Part shown: in pieces, positions 5,986 through 44,935 of the stretch
Layout of the letters: each line of letters starts with the position of its first letter
Numbering within the stretch: the stretch's first letter is position 1
Source of the DNA: a virus
Virus record (IMG/VR): IMGVR_UViG_3300048909_000109
Length of the DNA: 64,000 bases
Strand: one strand, 5' to 3'
Position numbers and translations under genes: made by a program
The notes under the pieces: generated by a model
What the model was told of the DNA's origin: nothing
What the model saw: only the letters and a program-made list of their open reading frames with translations
Databases searched by the model: none

Positions 5986-6273
5986 ATGACTAAGCTTATC
6001 GACATTTTCAAGAGCGGAACTGGTCAGTATGACAGTGCCCGCATCCTCTTTGTGATAGGAGGTCTAAACGGGATTATCACTCCCGTGGCCTTTCAAGCTT
6101 GGGCTATGTGGCGAGGTCAAGCTTGGGATGCTACCGCTTATTGCTTGGCTTATGGAGGAATGCTGTCTGCTGTCCTTTCTCTTGGCGGTCTCGGGATCGC
6201 GACCAAGGACAAGGGAGTAGCCAGCGCAAAGAACACCACGCCGCCGAGTGATCCTCCGGGCGGTCAGCCCTGA
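5986..6273 (+). CDS. Putative holin (2 TM)
   Basis: 95 aa, two hydrophobic helices, charged C-terminus, directly after endolysin. Confidence 0.6.
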   Translation: MTKLIDIFKSGTGQYDSARILFVIGGLNGIITPVAFQAWAMWRGQAWDATAYCLAYGGMLSAVLSLGGLGIATKDKGVASAKNTTPPSDPPGGQP

Positions 6274-6935
6274 TGGAAACGATGATGTCCAGGCATCAGA
6301 GTACGAGAACCGCCTAGCAATAGGTGGCCAGTGGGGCCCGGGTTGACTTGTCCCTCCGATCCGGGTCCCACGTCGTAGTCGTAAGTGTTGAGGACCTTTT
6401 CCATTTCTACGGAGAGCTGCATAGCGTCGTCGTTCATCCGCAGCTCATACTCCCACTTCTCTTTCTGGTCCCTCAGCGCATCGCCGACAGGATCATACCC
6501 CTCTCGAGGCTTGAACCGACGCAGCATAGTGTTGGTGCGCCTCAGTCGACGTTCGAGCTTGCGCCGATCATTCCGGATCGCTTGACGAGAAGCCTTGAGG
6601 CTGAGGATCATCTTGTCCTTGATGTTCTCTCCCTCGGGGTTATCCGTTGACCCGTCAGGACGCTCAGCCTCGACGACTGTCTTAATCATTTCCTTCAGGA
6701 ACAGTTCGATCCGCTCCGGGGTGATCCGATCCTCGTCGGTCCTGCCTGTGGTGTCATAACGCTTCCGGCGTTCCGGATTGATGAGGACATCATGGGCAAG
6801 CTTAATCTGCTCGAACTTGTCTCGATCACCACCATCACTGTCGGGATGATGCTTCGCGGACAGTTTACGGTATGCCTTGCGGATTTCCGTATTCGAAGCT
6901 TGAACAGAAACGCCGAGGATCTGATACAGGTTCAT
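6264..6935 (-). CDS. J-domain (DnaJ-like) co-chaperone
   Basis: LYQILGV...IRKAYRKLSAKHHPD...YD J-domain with HPD motif, then coiled coil. Confidence 0.9.
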   Translation of the reverse strand: MNLYQILGVSVQASNTEIRKAYRKLSAKHHPDSDGGDRDKFEQIKLAHDVLINPERRKRYDTTGRTDEDRITPERIELFLKEMIKTVVEAERPDGSTDNPEGENIKDKMILSLKASRQAIRNDRRKLERRLRRTNTMLRRFKPREGYDPVGDALRDQKEKWEYELRMNDDAMQLSVEMEKVLNTYDYDVGPGSEGQVNPGPTGHLLLGGSRTLMPGHHRFHQG

Positions 6936-7270
6936 TGGTCAGTAAACCCCTGAGCTTGATTGAAGGCCTTCACTCGGGCCCTGGTATCATCAATCGACTT
7001 CCAGGTTGCAGCGAGCTTGGCGCGGCAGTCATCCCCGACTTCGAATGAGTCTGAAATGAGCTGAGCAATATCCTTGTCGGATTTGACCGGCCGTCGTTCA
7101 AGACGAGCCAGACATTCGCGGAGCGAGGGATCAGGCTCTGCAAAGACCAACTTAGTCTTAACGACGACATCACTTATGGTCTTTGGGTGCTGGTCCCCAC
7201 AGGCGGTCAAGGGTGTCAGTGATGACAGGAGACACAGGAGCTGTAGAGGGCGGAGCAGTCTGGATTGCAT
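6932..7270 (-). CDS. o-spanin (Rz1-like lipoprotein)
   Basis: Signal peptide with lipobox LTAC from ATG 7270; overlaps 3' end of i-spanin gene. Confidence 0.75.
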   Translation of the reverse strand: MQSRLLRPLQLLCLLSSLTPLTACGDQHPKTISDVVVKTKLVFAEPDPSLRECLARLERRPVKSDKDIAQLISDSFEVGDDCRAKLAATWKSIDDTRARVKAFNQAQGFTDQ

Positions 7271-7619
7271 GGGAGATTTCCTTATACTGGGCCGTGCGCT
7301 GTTGGGACGCATGGCGTTCTTCGGTTGCGATGTTCTGGTTCGAGCTATGGATTTCGTTCTCGGTTGTCCGAGTCTTCTCGTTATCCGCGTTTGTCTGGAT
7401 CAGCTGTTTCTTCTGTTCTTCCAGGGTCGCCTTGTCACGCAGCAGCTGAGCGTTCTGCGTCTCGAGGTCCTTGATATGCTGGAAGTGTTGGTTGATGAAA
7501 CGAACGGCGAAGAAGATCCCGATGCCGACAAGGATGCCGAGGATCGCAAGTAGGATCATCTTGACGGTGATCGGCTTGCCGAAGGCCGAGAAGGCAACTT
7601 TCGCTAACAGTCCACCCAT
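7170..7619 (-). CDS. i-spanin (Rz-like)
   Basis: Single N-terminal TM, long coiled coil, Pro-rich C-terminus. Confidence 0.75.
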   Translation of the reverse strand: MGGLLAKVAFSAFGKPITVKMILLAILGILVGIGIFFAVRFINQHFQHIKDLETQNAQLLRDKATLEEQKKQLIQTNADNEKTRTTENEIHSSNQNIATEERHASQQRTAQYKEISHAIQTAPPSTAPVSPVITDTLDRLWGPAPKDHK

Positions 7620-8023
7620 TACTTGTCTCCTTCATAGAGTTCATTGACCCACTTGACCAACTGTGGGTTCGCACGGTAGCCGGCATGCCATACCGTATCG
7701 ATCTTCACTCCAGGAGGACAGGTGCCTTTGGCTTTGAGTTCCTTGAGGATCGAGCGGAGTCGTGAGATGCGGACATCGAAGATCTTGGGCTCGGGACCAC
7801 CATCAACCTGATCGCCATACATCAAGATATGGAAGGTCTGTCGGCTAATGACTGCGGGAGCACGTTTGACGAGGAGGTAGAGCATGGTGGCGAGGGTCTT
7901 CGTCATGCCATGCCTCAAAGCCATTAACGCGCCCAGCTCCTTGTCAGAGCCAGTCAAGGCTTCGAGTTGTTGCTTGAGGAGTTCTACCTGATCCTCAAGC
8001 TGTTCACGCGATAACTCGTCCAT
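7619..8023 (-). CDS. OmpR/CtrA-type winged-helix DNA-binding protein lacking a receiver domain
   Basis: GGPEPKIFDVRISRLR...IDTVWHAGYR resembles the CtrA C-terminus; N-terminal heptad repeat. Confidence 0.8.
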   Translation of the reverse strand: MDELSREQLEDQVELLKQQLEALTGSDKELGALMALRHGMTKTLATMLYLLVKRAPAVISRQTFHILMYGDQVDGGPEPKIFDVRISRLRSILKELKAKGTCPPGVKIDTVWHAGYRANPQLVKWVNELYEGDK

Positions 8024-13201: not shown

Positions 13202-14383
13202 CTAGTCCTCGGTCCGGTCCTTGTTTTCACGCTTGTGACTGAGGTCCTCGGACTGATACTCACGCTTGAGCAACCACTCGAGGTCGGAGTCCTTCACCTC
13301 AGCCTCGCACAGGAGCTGATAATCGCACCACGAGCAGTGCCTGCCGATGTTCTGATCGGTTTTCTTGCCGAAGTTATCCTGGATTTCTTTTGCCGTATCG
13401 ACAAAGTCATTCCAGATATTGTCGACCACTCGAGGCTTGACTGGACTAAAGACACGAATGAACCGGTTACGCCTGTTCGCTTCCGCGTCGGCAAGCATCT
13501 TCTTGAAGTCCTTGGGTTTATGACCCTCCTCTTCGATCCACGCATTTACGCGGGACGGTAGCGTATCTATGCGAGCCTGACTGATCTTGCCTGTGGCGGT
13601 CAATTCACCGGGAACATTGCACGGCTTGCTGCTGACATAGTCCCACAGAACGCCGTCGAGTGTGGGAAATCCCATTTCCTCAGCAGCACGGAAGTAGACT
13701 GATCCCTGCACCGACCTCCACCGCTCATGCTCGCTCGGCATACGGTTGAACGTCTTGTGTTCCATAATCCACTTCATCTTACGGGCACGAACGACCGCGT
13801 CGATCTTCCCAGTAAACCAGAGCCCATCGTCCAGTTCGATGCGGAACTCATACTCACTGCTTCGTCCGTCATGAACGATTGGCTTGATCGATCCTTCCCA
13901 ATACTCGAAGTAGTCCTCCATGATGTATTCGATGTCTTTGAGGATGTTCCCATACATTTCTCGTTCCTTGCGGAACATGGGACCGAGTTCCTTCTCGAGC
14001 TTACGAAGAACCTTGCGCCACTTCTTGCCTTCCATGTGAGCCTCGATCACTTCGTGAACGATGGACCCGAACATGAGTGGCCGTGTTTTCTTTTTCTTTT
14101 GGATGCCGAGCACGAACTTGTTATGGAACGCTCGCCGACAGTTCCTGTAGGTTTTCACCTTTGATTGGCTGATGTTGATCTGGCCATCGGCCATCAACAC
14201 CCGGCTGTGATCGTGCTCGGGAGCCTCCTTCCACTCAGGCCCCTTGTTGTGGCCTATTCCAACTCGAGCTGCAGCTGCCGCGGTCGGTGTGAGGATGAAC
14301 TGCGCTTCTCTTTGCTTACGCGCTGCTCGACGATCTTTGATTGTTCCTCTAGCCACTTCTTCAGTCCCTTTCCGGTGCTCCAT
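13202..14383 (-). CDS. PD-(D/E)XK Cas4-like exonuclease (alternative start 14194)
   Basis: ISQSKVKTY..C, GSIVH, GKIDAV, IMEHKT, HCSWCDYQLLC. Confidence 0.85.
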   Translation of the reverse strand: MEHRKGTEEVARGTIKDRRAARKQREAQFILTPTAAAAARVGIGHNKGPEWKEAPEHDHSRVLMADGQINISQSKVKTYRNCRRAFHNKFVLGIQKKKKTRPLMFGSIVHEVIEAHMEGKKWRKVLRKLEKELGPMFRKEREMYGNILKDIEYIMEDYFEYWEGSIKPIVHDGRSSEYEFRIELDDGLWFTGKIDAVVRARKMKWIMEHKTFNRMPSEHERWRSVQGSVYFRAAEEMGFPTLDGVLWDYVSSKPCNVPGELTATGKISQARIDTLPSRVNAWIEEEGHKPKDFKKMLADAEANRRNRFIRVFSPVKPRVVDNIWNDFVDTAKEIQDNFGKKTDQNIGRHCSWCDYQLLCEAEVKDSDLEWLLKREYQSEDLSHKRENKDRTED

Positions 14384-16857
14384 GCGCCGATCTTCGCCTC
14401 AGCCTCAATCGGAACGCTCATTTCAATCTCGAAGTCTTCGAGTAGGTCAGGATGCGACATAATCTCGAGTCCGCGGTTATATACGTGCTCGACCATATCA
14501 ATCCGAACCCACATCAGGATCGCATCGTGAACTGTCCCACAGATGCGGAACCATGCTTTCTTGAACTCACGCCGCATTTGTAACGCAGCCATGAGGTTAA
14601 GCTCATTAGCGAAGCTTTGAACAGGAGAATTGATTGCCTGACGTTGGGCTTCTCTTCTTTCTGGGGTATCTCGACCTCCCATCGCAGCAGGTAGGCGCCG
14701 TTTCCGTCCGGAGAGGGACCGCACATAACCGTTGACCTGAGCAAAACGCCGCTGTTTATCGTGCCATGCTGTGAAACTAGGATAAAGCTCGAAGAAAGCT
14801 TCCCTACTCGCTTGCGCCTCAGCATCATTCACCTCCACTCCGTAGTTGTCGCGAGCGTAGATCTTGAACTTCTTCCACCACATACCGTAGAGGTATCCGA
14901 AGTTGATCGCCTTCGCCTTCTTCCTGGTTTCCTTCCAGTCCATGAAGGGTTCGAGTGCTTTCGTCTCGGCCCACTTCGCCACAGTCTCGACTGCTTCGTC
15001 GCCGCCCATCTTCAGGACGTATTCGATAGCCTCACTGTAACCCATCTTGACGCCACCACTGTGGAGCTTGGCAGTCTTGATGACTTCCTTCTTGTATCCA
15101 CCGCCGCGTTCAATCTCTCGGATCGCAGTCTCCCAGTGGGGATCACCACCATTGACGAACACCCGTAGGAGGTTGAACTCGTTGGCAAGTTCCGCAGCAA
15201 TACGCAGTTCGATCTGCGACAGGTCCATTTCGATGAGAACCCATCCCGGCGGCGCGGTGATTAGGCTGCGGATCCTTGGGTCACGAGGCACCTGCTGAAG
15301 GTTCGGGTTCTCACATGATAGTCGACCGGTGACCGTGCCGTGTAACTTGAAGCTCGGATGCAGTCGACCCTCTAGGTCAATGTAAGGCTTCCAACCCTCA
15401 ATGAAGAATGATAGCTGTTGCTTGTGACCACGATACTTGAGCAGGTCACCGACCATGGGGTGATCGATCTGCTTGAGCACAGACTCTGCTGTGCTGTATC
15501 CGGTCTTCGTCTTCCACTCAGCGAGAGGCTTGATCTTGAGCTGATTGAACAGAAGGTCGGCAAGCTGCTGTGGTGATCCCCAGTTGATCTTGCCTTTGTT
15601 CGCGCCCTTCTTGTCAACGAGGACAGCTTTCTTGGCCCACTTCTCAAGGTTCTTCTCGGCCTTAGCTAATTCTTCACGAAGATAAATCTCGGCATCGTCC
15701 ATCTTGTCGAGGTCAACAGCGACGCCATTGAACTCAGCCTCAATGAACATTTTGATGCAGGGTACCATGATGAGCTTGTAGACTCGACGAGTATCATGAT
15801 CCTCGTTGAGCATCTTGCGAAGCACTGCTCGGAGCTTGCGCGTATAGTAGACGTCATGTGCGGCATACTTGGCGTTCGCCGGCGACCAGGATGTTTTCTC
15901 CTTCCCGTCGATGTTCCAGTCAGGAGCACCGAGAAACTTCTGTGCAAGATATTTCAGGTCATGGCGATCATTCTCGTCCAGCATATAGTGAGCGAGCATG
16001 GTGTCATCATCGACTGTCCACTTGACGCCGAAGCGAACAAGCATCCACAGGCAATCGAACTTCCCGTTGTGGAATACATTCTTGCACTTCCGCAATTTGC
16101 GGGTAACGAGTTTGACAATCTTCTCGAGTTGCTTGCGGGTCCATATACCCGCCGTTTCCATCGGCACAACCCACTGACGTTTCCGACAACCGAACTGCAT
16201 AGCCACGACACGTGGTAGGTTGTTCGACCCGTGAGTTTCTTTGTGCTGACGCAGCAACTCCTTCGACGCACGACCAGACTCGATCAGCTCGTCCTGCATC
16301 GTTGTGAAGGGGTAGAGGCGCGATGTTTCGAGGTCGGTAGCGACTAGACCGGTCAGGTCCTTGAGCATCGCCTTGACTTTGTCCCAGTCATCGACGATCT
16401 GATAGTCGAGGCCTCGTTCTTCAGGTATGCCACCGAACTTCACGCAGTCGGCCAGACGTTTGATGTCGGCCTGGATAACGTCGATCCACTTGTCATCGTG
16501 GAGTGCTTGGTTGGGGTGAAGGATCGGCAGGAATACGCGACCATTCTCTTCGAAAGGTTTGCCGCGTAACTTGGTGATGCCTGTCTTGTCGAGTACCGCC
16601 TGACAGGGAGTGTTGCCCATGAGCACAACGAACCGAGGATCCTTGCGGTCGAGCTTTGACAGGATCTTCGGTCGAGCGTTTTTCACCATCGTCTTGGTGA
16701 TGTTCTTGCCTTCAGGTGGCGACATTTCCAAGACGTTAGCCCACCGGAAATCGTCCTCCTCGAAGCCAGCCTCCAGCATGGCCTCCATCAGGATTTTCTT
16801 GGCACGTGGATTGATGTCGGGACTTTCCCCGACGACCATGACTTCCTTGCGACTCAC
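14254..16857 (-). CDS. polA: Family A DNA polymerase with N-terminal UDG-like domain
   Basis: VVGESP and LPILHP (UDG4-like); DLETS, NGKFD, YAAHD (3'-5' exonuclease); DLSQIELR, KAINFG..YG, VHDAI (polymerase motifs A/B/C). Confidence 0.95.
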   Translation of the reverse strand: MSRKEVMVVGESPDINPRAKKILMEAMLEAGFEEDDFRWANVLEMSPPEGKNITKTMVKNARPKILSKLDRKDPRFVVLMGNTPCQAVLDKTGITKLRGKPFEENGRVFLPILHPNQALHDDKWIDVIQADIKRLADCVKFGGIPEERGLDYQIVDDWDKVKAMLKDLTGLVATDLETSRLYPFTTMQDELIESGRASKELLRQHKETHGSNNLPRVVAMQFGCRKRQWVVPMETAGIWTRKQLEKIVKLVTRKLRKCKNVFHNGKFDCLWMLVRFGVKWTVDDDTMLAHYMLDENDRHDLKYLAQKFLGAPDWNIDGKEKTSWSPANAKYAAHDVYYTRKLRAVLRKMLNEDHDTRRVYKLIMVPCIKMFIEAEFNGVAVDLDKMDDAEIYLREELAKAEKNLEKWAKKAVLVDKKGANKGKINWGSPQQLADLLFNQLKIKPLAEWKTKTGYSTAESVLKQIDHPMVGDLLKYRGHKQQLSFFIEGWKPYIDLEGRLHPSFKLHGTVTGRLSCENPNLQQVPRDPRIRSLITAPPGWVLIEMDLSQIELRIAAELANEFNLLRVFVNGGDPHWETAIREIERGGGYKKEVIKTAKLHSGGVKMGYSEAIEYVLKMGGDEAVETVAKWAETKALEPFMDWKETRKKAKAINFGYLYGMWWKKFKIYARDNYGVEVNDAEAQASREAFFELYPSFTAWHDKQRRFAQVNGYVRSLSGRKRRLPAAMGGRDTPERREAQRQAINSPVQSFANELNLMAALQMRREFKKAWFRICGTVHDAILMWVRIDMVEHVYNRGLEIMSHPDLLEDFEIEMSVPIEAEAKIGAWSTGKGLKKWLEEQSKIVEQRVSKEKRSSSSHRPRQLQLELE

Positions 16858-17360
16858 GGGAGTTCTACGACCTTTCGGGTAAAGTACTCGACAATATAAC
16901 CTGCCGGCGTGACCTCGTAAACTTCCGTTCGTCCAGTGCGTCCCGGATCATGTGGCTTCGTGTAGGAACCCTCAAACATCCCTAAGTGCTGAGTTGATCG
17001 GTAAGGGATTTCAAAGAAGATGCGACGAACCCATAGATCGGAATTGACCACAAGTAGAGAGCACGGAGAGCATGGACTGTGAGTAAGATAGAGGTCAACG
17101 TCAGTACCTGCCGGAAGTAACTCTCCAGCCTTACGGAGCGCGTTGGCCTCAGCATGGATAGCAGGACAATGGCCAGGGACCATGCCAGGACACTCATTAC
17201 CGAGGCAGTGTGGCTGACCAGACGCGGCCCCGTTATATCCAACACTAATTGGATTGTTAGCACACACCACCAGACTGCCAACATTAAGTCGACTGCACGT
17301 AGAACGCTTCGATGCTGCTCGAGCCATGTCCATGAACATATTTTCACGACTATACCTCAT
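16854..17360 (-). CDS. dCMP deaminase
   Basis: SVGYNG, HAEANAL, PCSPC zinc motifs. Confidence 0.92.
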   Translation of the reverse strand: MRYSRENMFMDMARAASKRSTCSRLNVGSLVVCANNPISVGYNGAASGQPHCLGNECPGMVPGHCPAIHAEANALRKAGELLPAGTDVDLYLTHSPCSPCSLLVVNSDLWVRRIFFEIPYRSTQHLGMFEGSYTKPHDPGRTGRTEVYEVTPAGYIVEYFTRKVVELP

Positions 17361-17367
17361 CTGCTAG

Positions 17368-17571
17368 TTATTCCTTCCACGGCGACAAACGCCATTCCTC
17401 GATCCACTCATTGTGCGCCGAACCATTGTGGATCCAGGAGCACTGATAGGTGATGTAGAGTGTGTTGCCCGTTGCAAGTCGAAAGTTTACAGCGCAGATG
17501 GTGACCGGCATATCCCTGTCGTTATCGACCGACATCCGATCACCGATGTCATATAGACAAGATAATTTCAT
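17368..17571 (-). CDS. Hypothetical protein
   Basis: 67 aa, ATGA-coupled within the nucleotide cluster. Confidence 0.5.
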   Translation of the reverse strand: MKLSCLYDIGDRMSVDNDRDMPVTICAVNFRLATGNTLYITYQCSWIHNGSAHNEWIEEWRLSPWKE

Positions 17572-18428
17572 CGGCTAGCTCCATACAGCATGTGGTAGTC
17601 ATTGCGAAAGATATGAAGTGACCCGATCTGCATAACAAACAGACCAGGGACAACATCGTTCCAGTCACTGTTGCAGAGACGACAAGCCTCGAGCATCCAC
17701 AGAACTAGGCGGACGGTAAGGTAGAGGTCGTCCCGGAAATGACGGACAAAGTCACACGAGCGGATGTGGTAGTTGATGTCGAGCTTTCCGTCTCGCATGA
17801 GAAAGTGGTAGCCAATTGTGCAAGGAGCGCGCTTCGACCCGCCGCCAGTGTCTTCGGGAAACCACACTGGAAGATAAGCCTGTCGCGTATATGGATCATT
17901 AGCAAGCAGCGCCACGACATCGCCTAGGTCTCCATAGTCATACATAATACCGTGATGAGGTCGCGGAAGTTCGATCTTTTTGCCCCATACATCCTGAGCG
18001 ACAGTCTCCCAATCGTCCCGGGCGGTTGTGGGAATATCAAACTTGCCAGCATGTTTCGGCCAATACCGCTCCATATAGTTGTGGTTAAACATACCTCGCT
18101 CATCAAGAAAGGATGCAGCTGATTTGCTGAATGGCCAATTCTGCCACTCAAGGCCCGGGTTGATTGGGGCACCACAAACTCGTTCGCGGAAGTGATCCTC
18201 AGCCCACGGCATGTTTGGTCTAATATCCGCAGCGTATAGATCCCGATCTTCGTGGGGTAGCGGAACACAGAAAGCTGTATGGGTCAGTTCGTGCGTAGCC
18301 ATCTCAGGTCGAGCAGCGATGTCAGCTCCCTGCCAACGCGCAGAATGCACAAGGCTGGACTTGTAGCGTAGGCGATGCGACAACTGCTCACAGGCTGCCG
18401 CGAACGTGGGGAATTGATAAGGCCTCAT
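17568..18428 (-). CDS. Thymidylate synthase (ThyA) superfamily enzyme, dCMP hydroxymethylase-like
   Basis: TRQA, RAPC, RSCDFVRHFRDD (Asp at the Asn177-equivalent position), GSLHIF. Confidence 0.85.
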   Translation of the reverse strand: MRPYQFPTFAAACEQLSHRLRYKSSLVHSARWQGADIAARPEMATHELTHTAFCVPLPHEDRDLYAADIRPNMPWAEDHFRERVCGAPINPGLEWQNWPFSKSAASFLDERGMFNHNYMERYWPKHAGKFDIPTTARDDWETVAQDVWGKKIELPRPHHGIMYDYGDLGDVVALLANDPYTRQAYLPVWFPEDTGGGSKRAPCTIGYHFLMRDGKLDINYHIRSCDFVRHFRDDLYLTVRLVLWMLEACRLCNSDWNDVVPGLFVMQIGSLHIFRNDYHMLYGASR

Positions 18429-19258
18429 TCATCGTCTCCATCCGGGTCTACATAGTCGTTGTTATGTCCAGGGTGGTTTGCCCTGAGGTAATCGATCAGC
18501 TCGCGACGGCGACGACCCTTGATGCGTTTGTCAGCATCCATCTTCACCCGAAGCGCCTGTGCGAACTTCTGGATGCCTCGATAGTGCTCCTCACATACGT
18601 AGCGAGCAGACCACTTGATGATCCAGTCATAGAAATACCGATCCTTCTTCTTAATGCGCTCGAGCTCGGCAATCGGATCCTCAAGGTGTGGGATCAGTGT
18701 CACGAAATACATCGGGTGGACTGTAACATTGGCGAAGTGACAAGTCATCCCAAGAAATTCCATGCCCGAGAAATCGAAATCCTTGAGCAGCACATCGCGG
18801 ATAAAGATCAAATCCGCAGGAAACTTCTTCAGCAGCTCAGTCGTGCGATAGAAGACGTCGATTGCATAGGAGGCGTTCTTGCCACCCTTGATCTGCGTCA
18901 GCGTCACTGACTGGATGCACGGACCCATGACCGAGGCCCGCTTCGACTTCTTCTCAGAGTCGTTCTTCACGAAGTGATTGTAGGTGGTGAAGCCCACCGA
19001 ACCATAGGACGTTTTCTTACGCCTCAGATCCCAGAGCTTCAACGCTGCAACGATAGACTCAAGATGCAAGTAGCCTCTAGTGAGGTGTCCGATCTTGTTC
19101 TTTGTGTATCCGCAGTCCTCGAGCACGAGTGGATCGTCGTCATCCCACAGGTCATGGAATGTCACGGTTCTCGGTCGAATAATCTTGCGACATCCCGAGT
19201 AGAGGTCAGCCTCGCGGCGTGACATCCGTAGGACTTCGTCGATCCACTCTTGCTTCAT
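18425..19258 (-). CDS. Divergent second ThyA-fold protein
   Basis: MGPCIQSV (PC motif), YRTTELLKKFPAD aligns with RSxD-x7-D/N; ANVTVH. Confidence 0.6.
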   Translation of the reverse strand: MKQEWIDEVLRMSRREADLYSGCRKIIRPRTVTFHDLWDDDDPLVLEDCGYTKNKIGHLTRGYLHLESIVAALKLWDLRRKKTSYGSVGFTTYNHFVKNDSEKKSKRASVMGPCIQSVTLTQIKGGKNASYAIDVFYRTTELLKKFPADLIFIRDVLLKDFDFSGMEFLGMTCHFANVTVHPMYFVTLIPHLEDPIAELERIKKKDRYFYDWIIKWSARYVCEEHYRGIQKFAQALRVKMDADKRIKGRRRRELIDYLRANHPGHNNDYVDPDGDDE

Positions 19259-19260
19259 GC

Positions 19261-19455
19261 TTATTCCTTCTCGAGGCGAGCCCGGACAAAACAGTCCTTG
19301 GCCTCGAGCAGTTTACGAAGACCCGCTGATTTCTCGGCGCAATCGGGTAGATCGTTATCCATCTGCGTTGCCAGGTCACCGCATGGACCAGACACGAGTT
19401 GAAGATGCTCAGGCAAATGGGTGTAACTGAAATGCCTCATGATTGGACTTGCCAT
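19261..19455 (-). CDS. Small helical-hairpin protein, possible Acb2/Tad1-like anti-defence sponge
   Basis: FSYTHLPEHLQ...AEKSAGLRKLLEAKDCFVRARL. Confidence 0.5.
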   Translation of the reverse strand: MASPIMRHFSYTHLPEHLQLVSGPCGDLATQMDNDLPDCAEKSAGLRKLLEAKDCFVRARLEKE

Positions 19456-19464
19456 AGATCCCTC

Positions 19465-20223
19465 TTACTGATTGGTGCCCATGAACTCTGTCTCCGGCTC
19501 GGGCACACCGAAGACCTCGTCGAAGATTGCGTTGTCGGTGACCAGATCCCTGTGGTCAGGTGCAGTCCAGCCCGGAGGCTTGCCGATGTCATACTTGGCT
19601 ACACGGCCGGTGTCAGCACAGTTGCGCTCGCCGTCGTCCTTGACTTCGACACGAACCTTTGCCATGTTGGCAGTAACGACGCGCTTCCATGCTTCAAAGA
19701 ATACCTTGCGTCCAAATTGGAGGTCGGCCGTTCCGAGCACAACCCAGATGGAGTCACACAAGGCGTCGAGCTGAAGCTCCAGTTCGTTGAGGATGTCGCG
19801 GCGATCCTTGCGTTCTACCGCATCGACGAGTTTCGGGTATTCGTCGCGGTACTCGTGAGTTTCTTCGTCATGGAACTTAGTGCGGAAATCGTGCAGGTCT
19901 TCGGGTAGCATCCGAGGCTTACCAAGATACTCCTGACCGAACTTCGCATGGAACGCGTTCACATCGCCGAGCAGGTCAGGGAAGTCGTGGTCTCGAACGT
20001 GTAGACCCTTGCTGACCATGTCGGCCTGAGCCATGAGCACCGTCTTCATCCAATGAAAACTAGGATCACTCTCACGAGGACCACGATAGTTGGCCGCACT
20101 GACAAGCATATGCCGAACGTCACCCACCTCCTCGACGCGGAACGAGAAGCGAGCAATGACTTCATCCTCAAGGTCTAGGACGTCCACCGACTGCTCGCCA
20201 ACCACTTGACGGTCATCAACCAT
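19465..20223 (-). CDS. MazG-like all-alpha NTP pyrophosphatase (DR2231/dUTPase type) with extra N-terminal domain
   Basis: DVNAFHAKFG, EETHEY, LDALCD, ANMAK, KPPGW.APD. Confidence 0.85.
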   Translation of the reverse strand: MVDDRQVVGEQSVDVLDLEDEVIARFSFRVEEVGDVRHMLVSAANYRGPRESDPSFHWMKTVLMAQADMVSKGLHVRDHDFPDLLGDVNAFHAKFGQEYLGKPRMLPEDLHDFRTKFHDEETHEYRDEYPKLVDAVERKDRRDILNELELQLDALCDSIWVVLGTADLQFGRKVFFEAWKRVVTANMAKVRVEVKDDGERNCADTGRVAKYDIGKPPGWTAPDHRDLVTDNAIFDEVFGVPEPETEFMGTNQ

Positions 20224-20234
20224 ATCTATTCCTT

Positions 20235-20726
20235 TCAGGCTTTGGTATATTCGTTGAAGAAGTGGACGGTCGAGATGAGCCGATCCATGTCATCGCCGAT
20301 GCGATAGACGAAGTGAGCATGCTGAGCAGCCCACAGACGGTACTCGTTCAGCAGAGCCTGTTGGTTCGCCGATAAGAGTTGCTGGTGCCGCTCGGTGTCA
20401 TGCGGCTTGAGTTCGTGGCCTTCATATCCCCGCTCACCCGCGTCGCAGTATATGAGAATAGGATTGCTTTCGTAGAAGAGCATCGTTCGACCAGGCGTGA
20501 TCGGGTTGCCCTCAGGACGGAACTTGCCGTAGATCGCATTGGACACGACTGGGTGGCGAACGAACAACGTTGAGACCCTTTGCTCATAGCGATCAACGCG
20601 AGCATTTATCTCTTCGTCGCTCAGTGGCGGCCCTTCACTTTCTTGGATAATGAGCTCCATATAATCAGCCATGCTCTCAGCAAGTGTGCTCTTGCCAGAG
20701 TTATCCATACCCTCAATCACGATCAT
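20235..20726 (-). CDS. dNMP kinase (thymidylate-kinase-like P-loop)
   Basis: IVIEGMDNSGKST, VRHP. Confidence 0.8.
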   Translation of the reverse strand: MIVIEGMDNSGKSTLAESMADYMELIIQESEGPPLSDEEINARVDRYEQRVSTLFVRHPVVSNAIYGKFRPEGNPITPGRTMLFYESNPILIYCDAGERGYEGHELKPHDTERHQQLLSANQQALLNEYRLWAAQHAHFVYRIGDDMDRLISTVHFFNEYTKA

Positions 20727-43293: not shown

Positions 43294-43791
43294 CTAGCGT
43301 CGCTTAGACTGAAGAGGTCGGGGGCGCAAATCTTCCGACAGGAACCGCGGGTGCTTGGGTTCGGCGTTTAGAGCGAGCTCCAAACACATCAGTTGCAGGC
43401 CAGCTTCGTCTGCTACAACCCTTATCTGGGCCCCGCGTTCCTTATGTTTTACTCCCCACGCGCAGACGACGGGGATCTTCTTCCGCACCGCAAACATGAA
43501 GATCGTGCGGATCCACCAATCATTCGCCTTGCCCACAGCATCCTTCATCACCTGTGGAAGGTTTTCTGGTCTCGATGACCTGAACGCGTAGATATTCAAG
43601 ACGAGTACCGCGCCGTAACCCCACTTCTTCGAGTAGCGAATGATCTTTAGGATCGTGGGATCATTCTTCTGGTGATCGGCGGTCGATGGGTTCATCATGA
43701 TCCAGATGATGAGCGGCAGATGCGCCGCCCAACACCTGAACAACCACCACCGGTACTTCTTGTCGGAACTGATACCGGCTTCAGAAATCAT
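43294..43791 (-). CDS. DUF1643 family protein
   Basis: YRWWLFRCW, MMNPSTAD..NDPT, NIYAFRS, CAWG, PKHP. Confidence 0.85.
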   Translation of the reverse strand: MISEAGISSDKKYRWWLFRCWAAHLPLIIWIMMNPSTADHQKNDPTILKIIRYSKKWGYGAVLVLNIYAFRSSRPENLPQVMKDAVGKANDWWIRTIFMFAVRKKIPVVCAWGVKHKERGAQIRVVADEAGLQLMCLELALNAEPKHPRFLSEDLRPRPLQSKRR

Positions 43792-44735
43792 GCGAGTAGT
43801 CCGGGAACAAAGTCTTCCATGATTGCTTCACTCGGGATCGTCTTGCGGTGCTGGATCCAACCAGTGAAGTTTCCATGAAGCTCAGGCCGACGCCATGTCT
43901 TGAAGTCACCGCCGATCAGTTCATCAGGAGTTGCCTGATGCTCAGCAGGCGATGCGTGAACGGGACTGCTGATAACCAACTTCTCATAACGTGCCCGCTC
44001 AGCCTGATGATCCGCTTGACCGTCGAACGGTTTATAGGACAATCTCGCACACCGAGCTGTGGAAAGCATGAGTGCATCGGACTTGGCATACCAATCAAAG
44101 AGACTTACTCCAGAGCATGCTCGCCGAGTTTCCTCACCATCGTCCCATGCACTACGGATAAGTTCTGCAATCTCGTCCTGGTCAACGTAAGGCAGATGCC
44201 ACTCGCCGGGCTGCAGAAGCACAGGAGTTGACTGTGTCATGGCATACTTCATTGACCGAGCAAGCTCATCGAACTCCGGTTGAGCATACTCACTAATCCG
44301 TAATGTCCAGAAATTCTCCCAGTAGGTTGCAGTCACCAGAACATCAATCCAGCCGAACCATTCCAGTGGACGATTGGCGTGTTGCTTGTGCATCCCCTCG
44401 TTAGACCACCGCTCGACGTACTCGCGACAGATAGCCGCAAGGTCTTGCCACTCGTTGCGCCACTTCATCTGCAAGTCGTCAGGTGCAACGATGTCCGATT
44501 GCATGCCCGGCTTGTTCATGCCGAACACGGGGATGAAGATGGGTTCGGTCAACAGGATCCTTGAAGGCACAGCCCGACTTGATCGAGCGTTACGACTAAA
44601 GACCCGATGCGTCATGAGCTCAGCATGGATAGCTCGCCAGTAGCGAAGATGGAACGTCGTGATCCGGATGCCCTGTGGGCTTATACTGTCGGCAACTATC
44701 TTCGCAAATCCTTCGGAGGCCATGGAAAGTGCCAT
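43788..44735 (-). CDS. thyX: Flavin-dependent thymidylate synthase (ThyX-like, phage type); start 44735 or 44723
   Basis: IVADS, IHAELMTHRVFSRNARSSRAVP, HKQHANRPLEWF, STARCARLSY, HASPAEHQA. Confidence 0.8.
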   Translation of the reverse strand: MALSMASEGFAKIVADSISPQGIRITTFHLRYWRAIHAELMTHRVFSRNARSSRAVPSRILLTEPIFIPVFGMNKPGMQSDIVAPDDLQMKWRNEWQDLAAICREYVERWSNEGMHKQHANRPLEWFGWIDVLVTATYWENFWTLRISEYAQPEFDELARSMKYAMTQSTPVLLQPGEWHLPYVDQDEIAELIRSAWDDGEETRRACSGVSLFDWYAKSDALMLSTARCARLSYKPFDGQADHQAERARYEKLVISSPVHASPAEHQATPDELIGGDFKTWRRPELHGNFTGWIQHRKTIPSEAIMEDFVPGLLA

Positions 44736-44935
44736 CGGCCTTTCGCATCCGCTTTGGACATGCGCCGCTCCCACTCCTTCCGGAGCTCGCGATCCTTCCT
44801 CGTTTGTGGTATGTCCTTCCATATCCATTTTCCTTTCTTTGATGCAACTGCTTCACGAAGTCCTTTGAGGCCCGTTGTTCGAGGTGGCCCCATCCAGCCA
44901 CCGGGTGGCGGCTTATCCCGTTTCTCTTTAGCCAT
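44696..44935 (-). CDS. Basic hypothetical protein
   Basis: AGGAG RBS, 79 aa. Confidence 0.5.
   Translation of the reverse strand: MAKEKRDKPPPGGWMGPPRTTGLKGLREAVASKKGKWIWKDIPQTRKDRELRKEWERRMSKADAKGRWHFPWPPKDLRR

Follow-up and report, generated by a model that had tools for sequence, protein, structure and literature searches.

Two adjoining ThyA-fold genes in a siphovirus-type genome and their probable part in replacing deoxycytidine

What might a phage do with two adjoining genes for thymidylate synthase (ThyA)-fold proteins that both appear to carry a cytosine-type aspartate and stand among genes for nucleotide enzymes? The question is raised by IMG/VR virus record IMGVR_UViG_3300048909_000109, of which a stretch of 64,000 nucleotides (the window) was analysed; it resembles a complete siphovirus-type phage genome of ~64 kb, with terminase, portal, tail, ligase and primase genes. 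One minus-strand gene string, running from 20726 down to ~13200, holds the cassette, in the order kinase, nucleoside triphosphate (NTP) pyrophosphatase (NTPase), an open reading frame (ORF) of 64 amino acids (aa), TS2, TS1, a 67-aa ORF, deaminase and family A DNA polymerase (PolA), and no minus-strand terminator-like site interrupting this string was found. We read the operon from 20726 to ~14254 as a pre-replicative module that replaces deoxycytidine by way of a C5-modified dCTP, and give this reading a probability of roughly 0.6; 5-hydroxymethylcytosine (5hmC) is the leading guess for its product. The two genes at its centre are the following.

18425..19258, minus strand: TS2, a ThyA-fold protein of 277 aa (AlphaFold model; phrog_34294)
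17568..18428, minus strand: TS1, a divergent ThyA-family enzyme of 286 aa (PF00303, phrog_160)

TS1 scores above the PF00303 gathering cut-off (29.4 bits against 24.3), matches phrog_160 with E 1e-29, and its structure model reaches Z ~15.8 to ThyA structures. It contains APC and RSCDFVRHFRDD, with Cys203 encoded by 17822-17820 and Asp234 by 17729-17727. C203, R223, S224, D226, D234 and H272 align in MAFFT with ThyA residues C146, R166, S167, D169, N177 and H207, and all six are invariant among 26 TS1 relatives; by fold and catalytic residues TS1 thus belongs to the ThyA/dCMP-hydroxymethylase superfamily. The Asn at position 177 of E. coli ThyA confers specificity for dUMP. Its replacement by Asp (N177D) changes the preference of ThyA to dCMP (PMC8670742; bioRxiv 10.1101/2024.12.05.627091). 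Asp234 of TS1 falls in this N177/D179 column when aligned with E. coli ThyA, T4 gp42, RB69 gp48 and PaMx74 ThyA, and it pairs with the mutant Asp of the L. casei thymidylate synthase N229D mutant (1njc), the top PDB sequence match. An earlier reading of this DNA from the sequence only had placed an Asp at position 177 of TS1; the 1njc match, the MAFFT alignments and the invariance among relatives bear it out, and the ORFs, motifs and both Asp codons that it quoted proved exact.

In ThyA, a C-terminal lid closes over the folate and is needed for hydride transfer. This lid, the last ~45 residues of ThyA, is missing from TS1, which ends just past the strand equivalent to that of H207, and the structural alignment of TS1 stops at residue 267 of the 313 of human thymidylate synthase. 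Moreover, TS1 passed none of the NCBIfam thymidylate synthase equivalogs (best 23.7 bits against a cut-off of 174). The Asp at position 177, the missing lid and these scores far under the cut-offs rule out TS1 as a ThyA proper.

TS1 shares with T4 gp42 and RB69 gp48 two dCMP-type changes, Thr at the H147 position and a hydrophobic residue at that of Q165. With T4 gp42 it also has in common the motif RS-D...D and the equivalents of Asp179 and Cys148 (D234 and C203), and BLASTP gives 24% identity over 193 aa (E 7e-9). The position of L143 is Leu in canonical ThyA and Asp or Glu in gp42-type hydroxymethylases (PMC13326640); in TS1 it is Arg200, invariant in the 26 relatives. In a maximum-likelihood tree TS1 falls into a clade of proteobacterial, actinobacterial and clostridial phage homologues (support 95/94), which is separate from the group of E. 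coli ThyA and PaMx74 ThyA (98/97), from that of T4 and Aes508 gp42 (98/97) and from RB69 gp48; the deep nodes are weak and the branches long. Because this clade is separate and supported, TS1 represents a lineage without a characterised member, and more than 4000 TS1 relatives are found at 90% clustering. Assigning the product of TS1 from phylogeny was rejected on account of its own clade, the weak deep nodes and the long branches. The equivalents of the folate-binding WxxW and Tyr94 are present in TS1 in alignment A3, in which RB69 gp48 lacks WxxW; their retention is a tentative indication of folate use, because alignment A4 places the segment differently.

TS2 contains GPC and RTTELLKKFPAD, with Cys114 (codon 18919-18917), the motif Arg138-Thr-Thr-Glu141 and Asp149 (codon 18814-18812). 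It belongs to phrog_34294, a family without annotated function, and searches of Pfam and NCBIfam, with phmmer and against PDB by profile gave no match, not even when the profile was built from 64 sequences. Because these sequence-level searches gave nothing, the fold assignment comes from an AlphaFold model built from a diverse alignment (pLDDT 93.5, pTM 0.90). Foldseek matched the model to the dCMP hydroxylase AfhB of phage HY126 (9iqu, E 3e-6), and the VIA Z scores were 13.3 for AfhB (9iqu/9iqc), 13.0 for the CMP hydroxymethylase MilA (5b6e, 5jnh) and ~10.5-11 for ThyA and T4 dCMP hydroxymethylase; all significant Foldseek and VIA matches, in PDB and in AFDB clusters, belong to the ThyA superfamily. 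As modelled, TS2 clearly has a ThyA fold, in a reduced form with a C-terminal helical extension. Helices 54-63 and 66-81 follow each other so closely in its order of secondary-structure elements that ThyA residues ~67-110 find no space between them, and TS2 seems in the model to be without the folate-binding insert (the segment of W80, W83 and Y94).

The residues K55, Y63, C114, R138 and D149 are invariant across 64 TS2 relatives with identity down to 22%, and Glu141 is near-invariant; the invariance of C114, R138 and D149 indicates that the motif is not a chance occurrence. In the model, Cys114 begins a strand, Arg138-Glu141 ends the next strand and the helix after that has Asp149 in its first turn, a context that matches both the TS1 model and E. 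coli ThyA. The spacing is also identical to that of TS1 and ThyA, the Arg being followed at +3 by Asp/Glu and at +8 by Asp/Asn. In hhalign, TS2 and the TS1 family give a weak local match (E 0.016) which pairs GPC with APC, RTTE with RSCD and FPAD with FRDD. Judged from this weak match, the spacing and the strand-helix context, D149 is probably the equivalent of N177, and the ThyA fold and specificity-position Asp that the sequence-only reading had given to TS2 are upheld to that extent; the idea that the two genes are recent tandem paralogues is contradicted by the same E value. The invariant Cys, Arg and Asp argue that TS2 itself binds and attacks a cytosine nucleotide, and we consider it probable that TS2, beside TS1, is a further ThyA-fold enzyme of the cytosine type and is competent in catalysis.

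The two best structural matches of TS2 also differ from it. AfhB and RB69 gp48 are flavin-dependent dCMP 5-hydroxylases; they share with TS1 and TS2 a short ThyA fold that is missing the C-terminal lid, and an Asp at the N177 position, in TS2 the probable equivalent. However, the substitution D169N, diagnostic of 5-hydroxy-dCMP synthases (PMC13326640), is found in AfhB and RB69 gp48 and not in TS1 (Asp226) or TS2 (Glu141). MilA likewise has a ThyA fold, specificity for cytosine and an Asp where ThyA has N177 (PMC13326640), but it is a bacterial antibiotic-pathway enzyme of 318 aa which acts on CMP and is 5% identical to TS2.

How constant is the pair? It was examined in 58 related IMG/VR loci, retrieved with a 16-sequence subset of the TS2 alignment. 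TS1 comes after TS2 and shares its strand in 57 of them; the remaining locus is truncated. In the window the TS2 stop and the TS1 start overlap in the 4-nt ATGA, with GGAGA shortly 5' of the ATG; a 4-nt overlap occurs in 26 of the 57 loci (longest-ORF calls), also across phyla. The other cassette genes are present in most of the 58 loci (deaminase 55, PolA 52 and adjoining the deaminase, kinase 50, NTPase 49). Median identity to the window protein in the 17 closer loci is 75% for TS2, 71% for PolA, 57% for TS1 and 53% for the deaminase, and in 36 more distant loci TS2 again has the top median identity (51%). No other gene of the cassette is as well conserved as TS2 by these values, which contradict the earlier description of it as degenerate. 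Kinase and NTPase form a single polypeptide in seven loci (L033, L034, L038, L066, L067, L069 and L070), which is a Rosetta-stone link between both activities. In one locus (L068:5926-6774 and 6771-7532) tandem TS2 paralogues lie directly 5' of TS1, so that three ThyA-fold genes are consecutive; the second paralogue is 35% identical to the window TS2.

The cassette is also found in cultured phages. Its order is annotated in the Brevundimonas phages Strzyga and Polewnik (~60% identity), and further in a Desulfofustis phage, in Manatee Spring viromes and in Yersinia phage P744; in two of the records annotated with this order the TS2 homologue is labelled 'pyrimidine hmase synthase'. By tblastn, homologues of both TS1 and TS2 are present in Serratia and Pseudomonas phages (presence, not gene order). 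The gene 5' of thyA in Clostridium phage P21 is a TS2 homologue (hhalign probability 98.7%), and the 'hypothetical' genes 5' of thyA in Streptomyces phage KimJongPhill and Gordonia phage SheckWes match TS2 more weakly (66% and 27%). Cultured carriers of the pair thus infect Proteobacteria, Actinobacteria and Clostridium, with weaker TS2 matches in the actinobacterial phages. Metagenomic representatives with 22-35% identity retain the cassette context. The TS2 family, with 932 relatives at 90% clustering, is essentially phage-only in ESM Atlas rows, and relatives of TS1 and TS2 occur in soil, root, sewage and gut metagenomes.

The genes flanking the pair, and one gene elsewhere in the window that bears on thymidylate supply, are as follows.

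20235..20726, minus strand: P-loop dNMP (deoxynucleoside monophosphate)-kinase-like protein of 163 aa, first gene of the cassette (phrog_761)
19465..20223, minus strand: all-alpha (MazG/PRA-PH-like) NTP pyrophosphohydrolase of 252 aa, proposed to act as a dCTPase (phrog_671)
19261..19455, minus strand: accessory ORF of 64 aa (phrog_1761, E 3e-30)
17368..17571, minus strand: ORF of 67 aa between TS1 and the deaminase, without family match
16854..17360, minus strand: dCMP/dCTP-type zinc deaminase of 168 aa (PF00383, phrog_174, PDB 2hvv)
14254..16857, minus strand: family A DNA polymerase with 3'-5' exonuclease and an N-terminal domain of the uracil-DNA glycosylase (UDG) superfamily (Pfam)
43788..44828, minus strand: ThyX-like homologue of flavin-dependent thymidylate synthase, 346 aa (PF02511, phrog_85)

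The deaminase matches PF00383 (E 8e-18), phrog_174 (E 1e-31) and the dCMP deaminase 2hvv in PDB (E 9e-16). The NTPase matches phrog_671 (E 1.7e-17) and, under threshold, PRA-PH (E 0.047), and its counterparts in relatives match dUTPase_2. The kinase matches the thymidylate kinase family phrog_761 (E 3e-7), with weak Pfam and NCBIfam matches to the dTMP-kinase P-loop. A dCMP deaminase, a MazG-like NTPase and a dNMP kinase, as named in the sequence-only reading, are accordingly recovered, the kinase with weaker support. PolA carries DNA_pol_A (E 3e-72), exonuclease (E 2e-16) and UDG (PF03167, E 6e-10) domains, and is followed in the string by a PD-(D/E)XK nuclease and an AAA_24 ATPase; the UDG-PolA fusion is also seen in two distant relatives of the cassette (L005 and L006). 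Since only 3 of the 58 loci have a counterpart of the 64-aa ORF, it lies outside the conserved core. The 67-aa ORF matches no Pfam, PHROG or NCBIfam family and has BLASTP counterparts in ~14 of the 58 loci, mostly the closer relatives. In one subclade (L047, L050-L054, L056, L063 and L071) an ORF of ~115 aa recurs directly 3' of TS1, often followed by a 3'-5' exonuclease-like ORF.

The ThyX-like protein matches PF02511 (E 2e-9) and phrog_85 (E 5e-83). It has an N-terminal extension. Its TIGR02170 score (40 bits) is under the NCBIfam thyX cut-off and its motif reads THR...S...SSR where the canonical form is RHR, so that, in place of a plain dTMP synthase, it could be some variant of the flavin-dependent pyrimidine enzymes. 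To judge from its sequence it is likely a separate source of dTMP, and with this gene present the thymidylate supply is probably independent of TS1 and TS2. No dihydrofolate reductase (DHFR) gene was found in the window. Among the ~50 larger ORFs of the window, many of them without assignment, Pfam detected no glycosyltransferase, methyltransferase or carbamoyltransferase, in keeping with the earlier remark that no glycosyltransferase is visible.

Several observations concern the phage itself. Its closest cultured relatives infect Brevundimonas. The product of its gene at 7619-8023 (minus strand) is small and carries a winged-helix Trans_reg_C domain (E 8e-8), which calls to mind the CtrA-type regulators reported from phages of Alphaproteobacteria (PMC9437464); the gene at 6264-6935 (minus strand) encodes a DnaJ (J-domain) protein (PF00226, E 1.6e-19). 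DNA near-identical to that of the window phage was found in root and soil metagenomes only, as contigs, and was not found in the MetaGPA-type selection libraries among the public runs searched for experimental read-outs.

Two known systems place the cassette in context. The 5hmC pathway of T4 has the same roles, namely an NTP pyrophosphatase (gp56), a Cys/Asp ThyA-fold enzyme (gp42), a dNMP kinase (gp1) and a deaminase (cd), and the T4-like functional set proposed from the sequence is sustained by this parallel of kinase, NTPase and deaminase in the context of PolA. The cassette differs from T4 in that no glucosyltransferases were found, the NTPase has no pairwise similarity to gp56, the polymerase is of family A and not of family B, the genome is of siphovirus type and ~64 kb, and an extra, obligatory ThyA-fold partner, TS2, is present. 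Unlike the AfhB and RB69 systems, the window has no arabinosyl or glycosyl transferases by Pfam. In a distant relative (L006:10924-12538), a GT2 glycosyltransferase and a radical SAM enzyme directly follow PolA, a hint of additional decoration of the modified base, at the DNA level, in some lineages. Xp12 and PaMx74 have, as the window does, the order NTP pyrophosphatase, Asp177 ThyA homologue and dCMP-family deaminase, and this type of neighbourhood is associated with cytosine-modified phage DNA (bioRxiv 10.1101/2024.12.05.627091). According to MetaGPA work, Asp177 ThyA homologues are located together with PRA-PH NTPases, dCMP-family deaminases and PolA specifically on experimentally cytosine-modified contigs (PMC8670742; bioRxiv 10.1101/2024.12.05.627091), a link of the neighbourhood to modified cytosine that is both statistical and experimental. 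Because the neighbourhood is tied in this way to modified cytosine, we read the operon as a T4-like replacement of deoxycytidine at the nucleotide level.

From the folds, active-site residues, gene order and conservation observed here we infer the substrates, the product, the order of steps and the DNA modification itself. The all-alpha NTP pyrophosphatase would convert dCTP to dCMP and thereby deplete dCTP. TS1, with TS2, would then act on dCMP, the catalytic cysteine attacking C6 and the aspartate reading the N3/N4 face of cytosine, and would install a one-carbon unit from methylene-tetrahydrofolate at C5. The product would most likely be 5-hydroxymethyl-dCMP (5hmdCMP) rather than 5-methyl-dCMP (5mdCMP), water capturing the exocyclic methylene; this is favoured because the lid of TS1 is missing, a polar Arg occupies the L143 'water gate' and the folate motif is retained. 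The P-loop kinase would phosphorylate the modified dCMP, host nucleoside diphosphate kinase would complete the triphosphate, and the adjoining phage PolA would incorporate it, while the deaminase and the ThyX-like enzyme would supply thymidylate. TS2 may form a complex with TS1 or may perform a further nucleotide-level step on the TS1 product; the tight translational coupling and the universal pairing argue for one or the other.

A number of points weigh against this scheme. The hydroxymethyl call is a weak inference, because TS1 falls outside the gp42 clade, in a tree with weak deep nodes, and has Arg, not Asp or Glu, at the L143 position; for these two reasons TS1 is also not supported as the orthologue of T4 gp42 for which it might be taken. 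PaMx74 ThyA has Asn at that position, so the L143 rule is not clean. Within PDB, TS1 is most identical (20%, structure-based alignment) to AfhB, the flavin-dependent hydroxylase, and it has Phe at the Y209 position, as in RB69 gp48. Five of seven tested deaminase-linked Asp177 ThyA homologues gave 5mdCMP, not 5hmdCMP (bioRxiv 10.1101/2024.12.05.627091). Assignment is weak for both the NTPase and the kinase, and D149 of TS2 is matched to N177 by local alignment, spacing and structural context rather than by superposition of residues. Finally, data on DNA modification in cultured relatives were not found in the literature searched, which covered Brevundimonas phages, Serbin, Tlacuache, PMBT14, P744, Muddy/FF47-type and Clostridium phages.

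Could TS1 and TS2 instead be the halves of an obligate heterodimer that catalyses a single reaction, neither being active alone? The ThyA fold is an obligate dimer with shared active sites, and the near-universal co-occurrence of TS2 and TS1 and the 4-nt stop/start overlap, kept in many loci and across phyla, fit such an enzyme. Residues fit it as well, since TS1 keeps the trans-acting Arg182 (equivalent to R126), but with Gln at the R127 position, and in TS2 the corresponding loop is without a conserved basic residue; moreover, TS1 is missing a C-terminal segment and TS2 has a C-terminal helical extension. However, no natural TS2-TS1 fusion was found among the matches listed (150 of 222 representative), the tandem TS2 paralogues at one locus fit self-association of TS2 equally well, and the catalytic triad is complete in both proteins, although a partner with a structural role alone could do without it. 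We regard the heterodimer as a possible arrangement, though one that we would not expect.

A methylation pathway like that of Xp12 and PaMx74 is an unlikely account. Here TS1 would make 5-methyl-dCMP, 5-methylcytosine (5mC) would fully replace cytosine, TS2 would be an accessory, and the deaminase would be 5mC-selective and make dTTP from part of the 5mdCTP pool. The published neighbourhood of NTP pyrophosphatase, Asp177 ThyA and deaminase is the same, and the deaminases linked to the homologues that made 5mdCMP in five of seven cases preferred 5mC/5hmC (bioRxiv 10.1101/2024.12.05.627091). The gene order of PaMx74, a 5mC phage, is NTPase-thyA-cd, and PaMx74 cd shares 30% identity with the deaminase of the window. 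But PaMx74 ThyA is full-length and near-canonical, keeps the lid that TS1 is missing and clusters with E. coli ThyA, apart from the TS1 clade. It has an adjoining DHFR gene and no TS2-like gene 5' of it, whereas the window has no DHFR and does have the ThyX-like gene, so that a deaminase route to thymidine is not needed.

Much the same doubt attaches to a further proposal, that TS1 and TS2 are a two-component ThyA-fold system making a nucleotide-level cytosine derivative other than 5mC, 5hmC or 5-hydroxycytosine; as an example, the TS2 cysteine might re-activate 5-hydroxymethyl-dCMP so that its hydroxyl is swapped for another nucleophile. Ordinary nucleotide salvage, with TS1 making dTMP, TS2 a decaying duplicate and the DNA canonical, is very improbable: TS1 homologues are annotated as 'thymidylate synthase' in GenBank and TS1 passes the PF00303 gathering score, but the invariant Asp at the N177 position, the absent lid, scores far under every NCBIfam thymidylate synthase cut-off, a ThyX-like gene already in the window and a TS2 conserved above all other cassette genes, with invariant catalytic residues, all speak against it.

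Deoxycytidine replacement, the reading we prefer, is a pathway type already known from T4, Xp12 and RB69. The literature searched describes neither the TS2 family nor the obligatory way in which it is paired with the TS1 lineage; the MetaGPA work links the neighbourhood to cytosine-modified phage DNA without describing TS2 (PMC8670742; bioRxiv 10.1101/2024.12.05.627091). Published screens, as described, co-expressed the Pfam-detectable ThyA homologue with the dNMP kinase gp1 of T4 and with no neighbouring gene. If TS2 is needed by TS1 or alters its product, the modification would be overlooked or wrongly assigned in such assays.

By replacing pyrimidines before replication, phages gain a major counter-defence, and such pathways supply enzymes for epigenetic sequencing, and the most conserved gene of this cassette, TS2, has no described function, Pfam family or characterised homologue. 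The cassette is very common, strongly conserved and present in many cultured phages, among them Strzyga and Polewnik (Brevundimonas), Serbin (Serratia), PMBT14 (Pseudomonas), P744 (Yersinia) and P21 (Clostridium), and is hence directly testable there. If the two-component proposal were true, thousands of siphophages would carry an undescribed DNA base, including cultured phages of Gordonia, Mycobacterium, Serratia, Pseudomonas and Clostridium.

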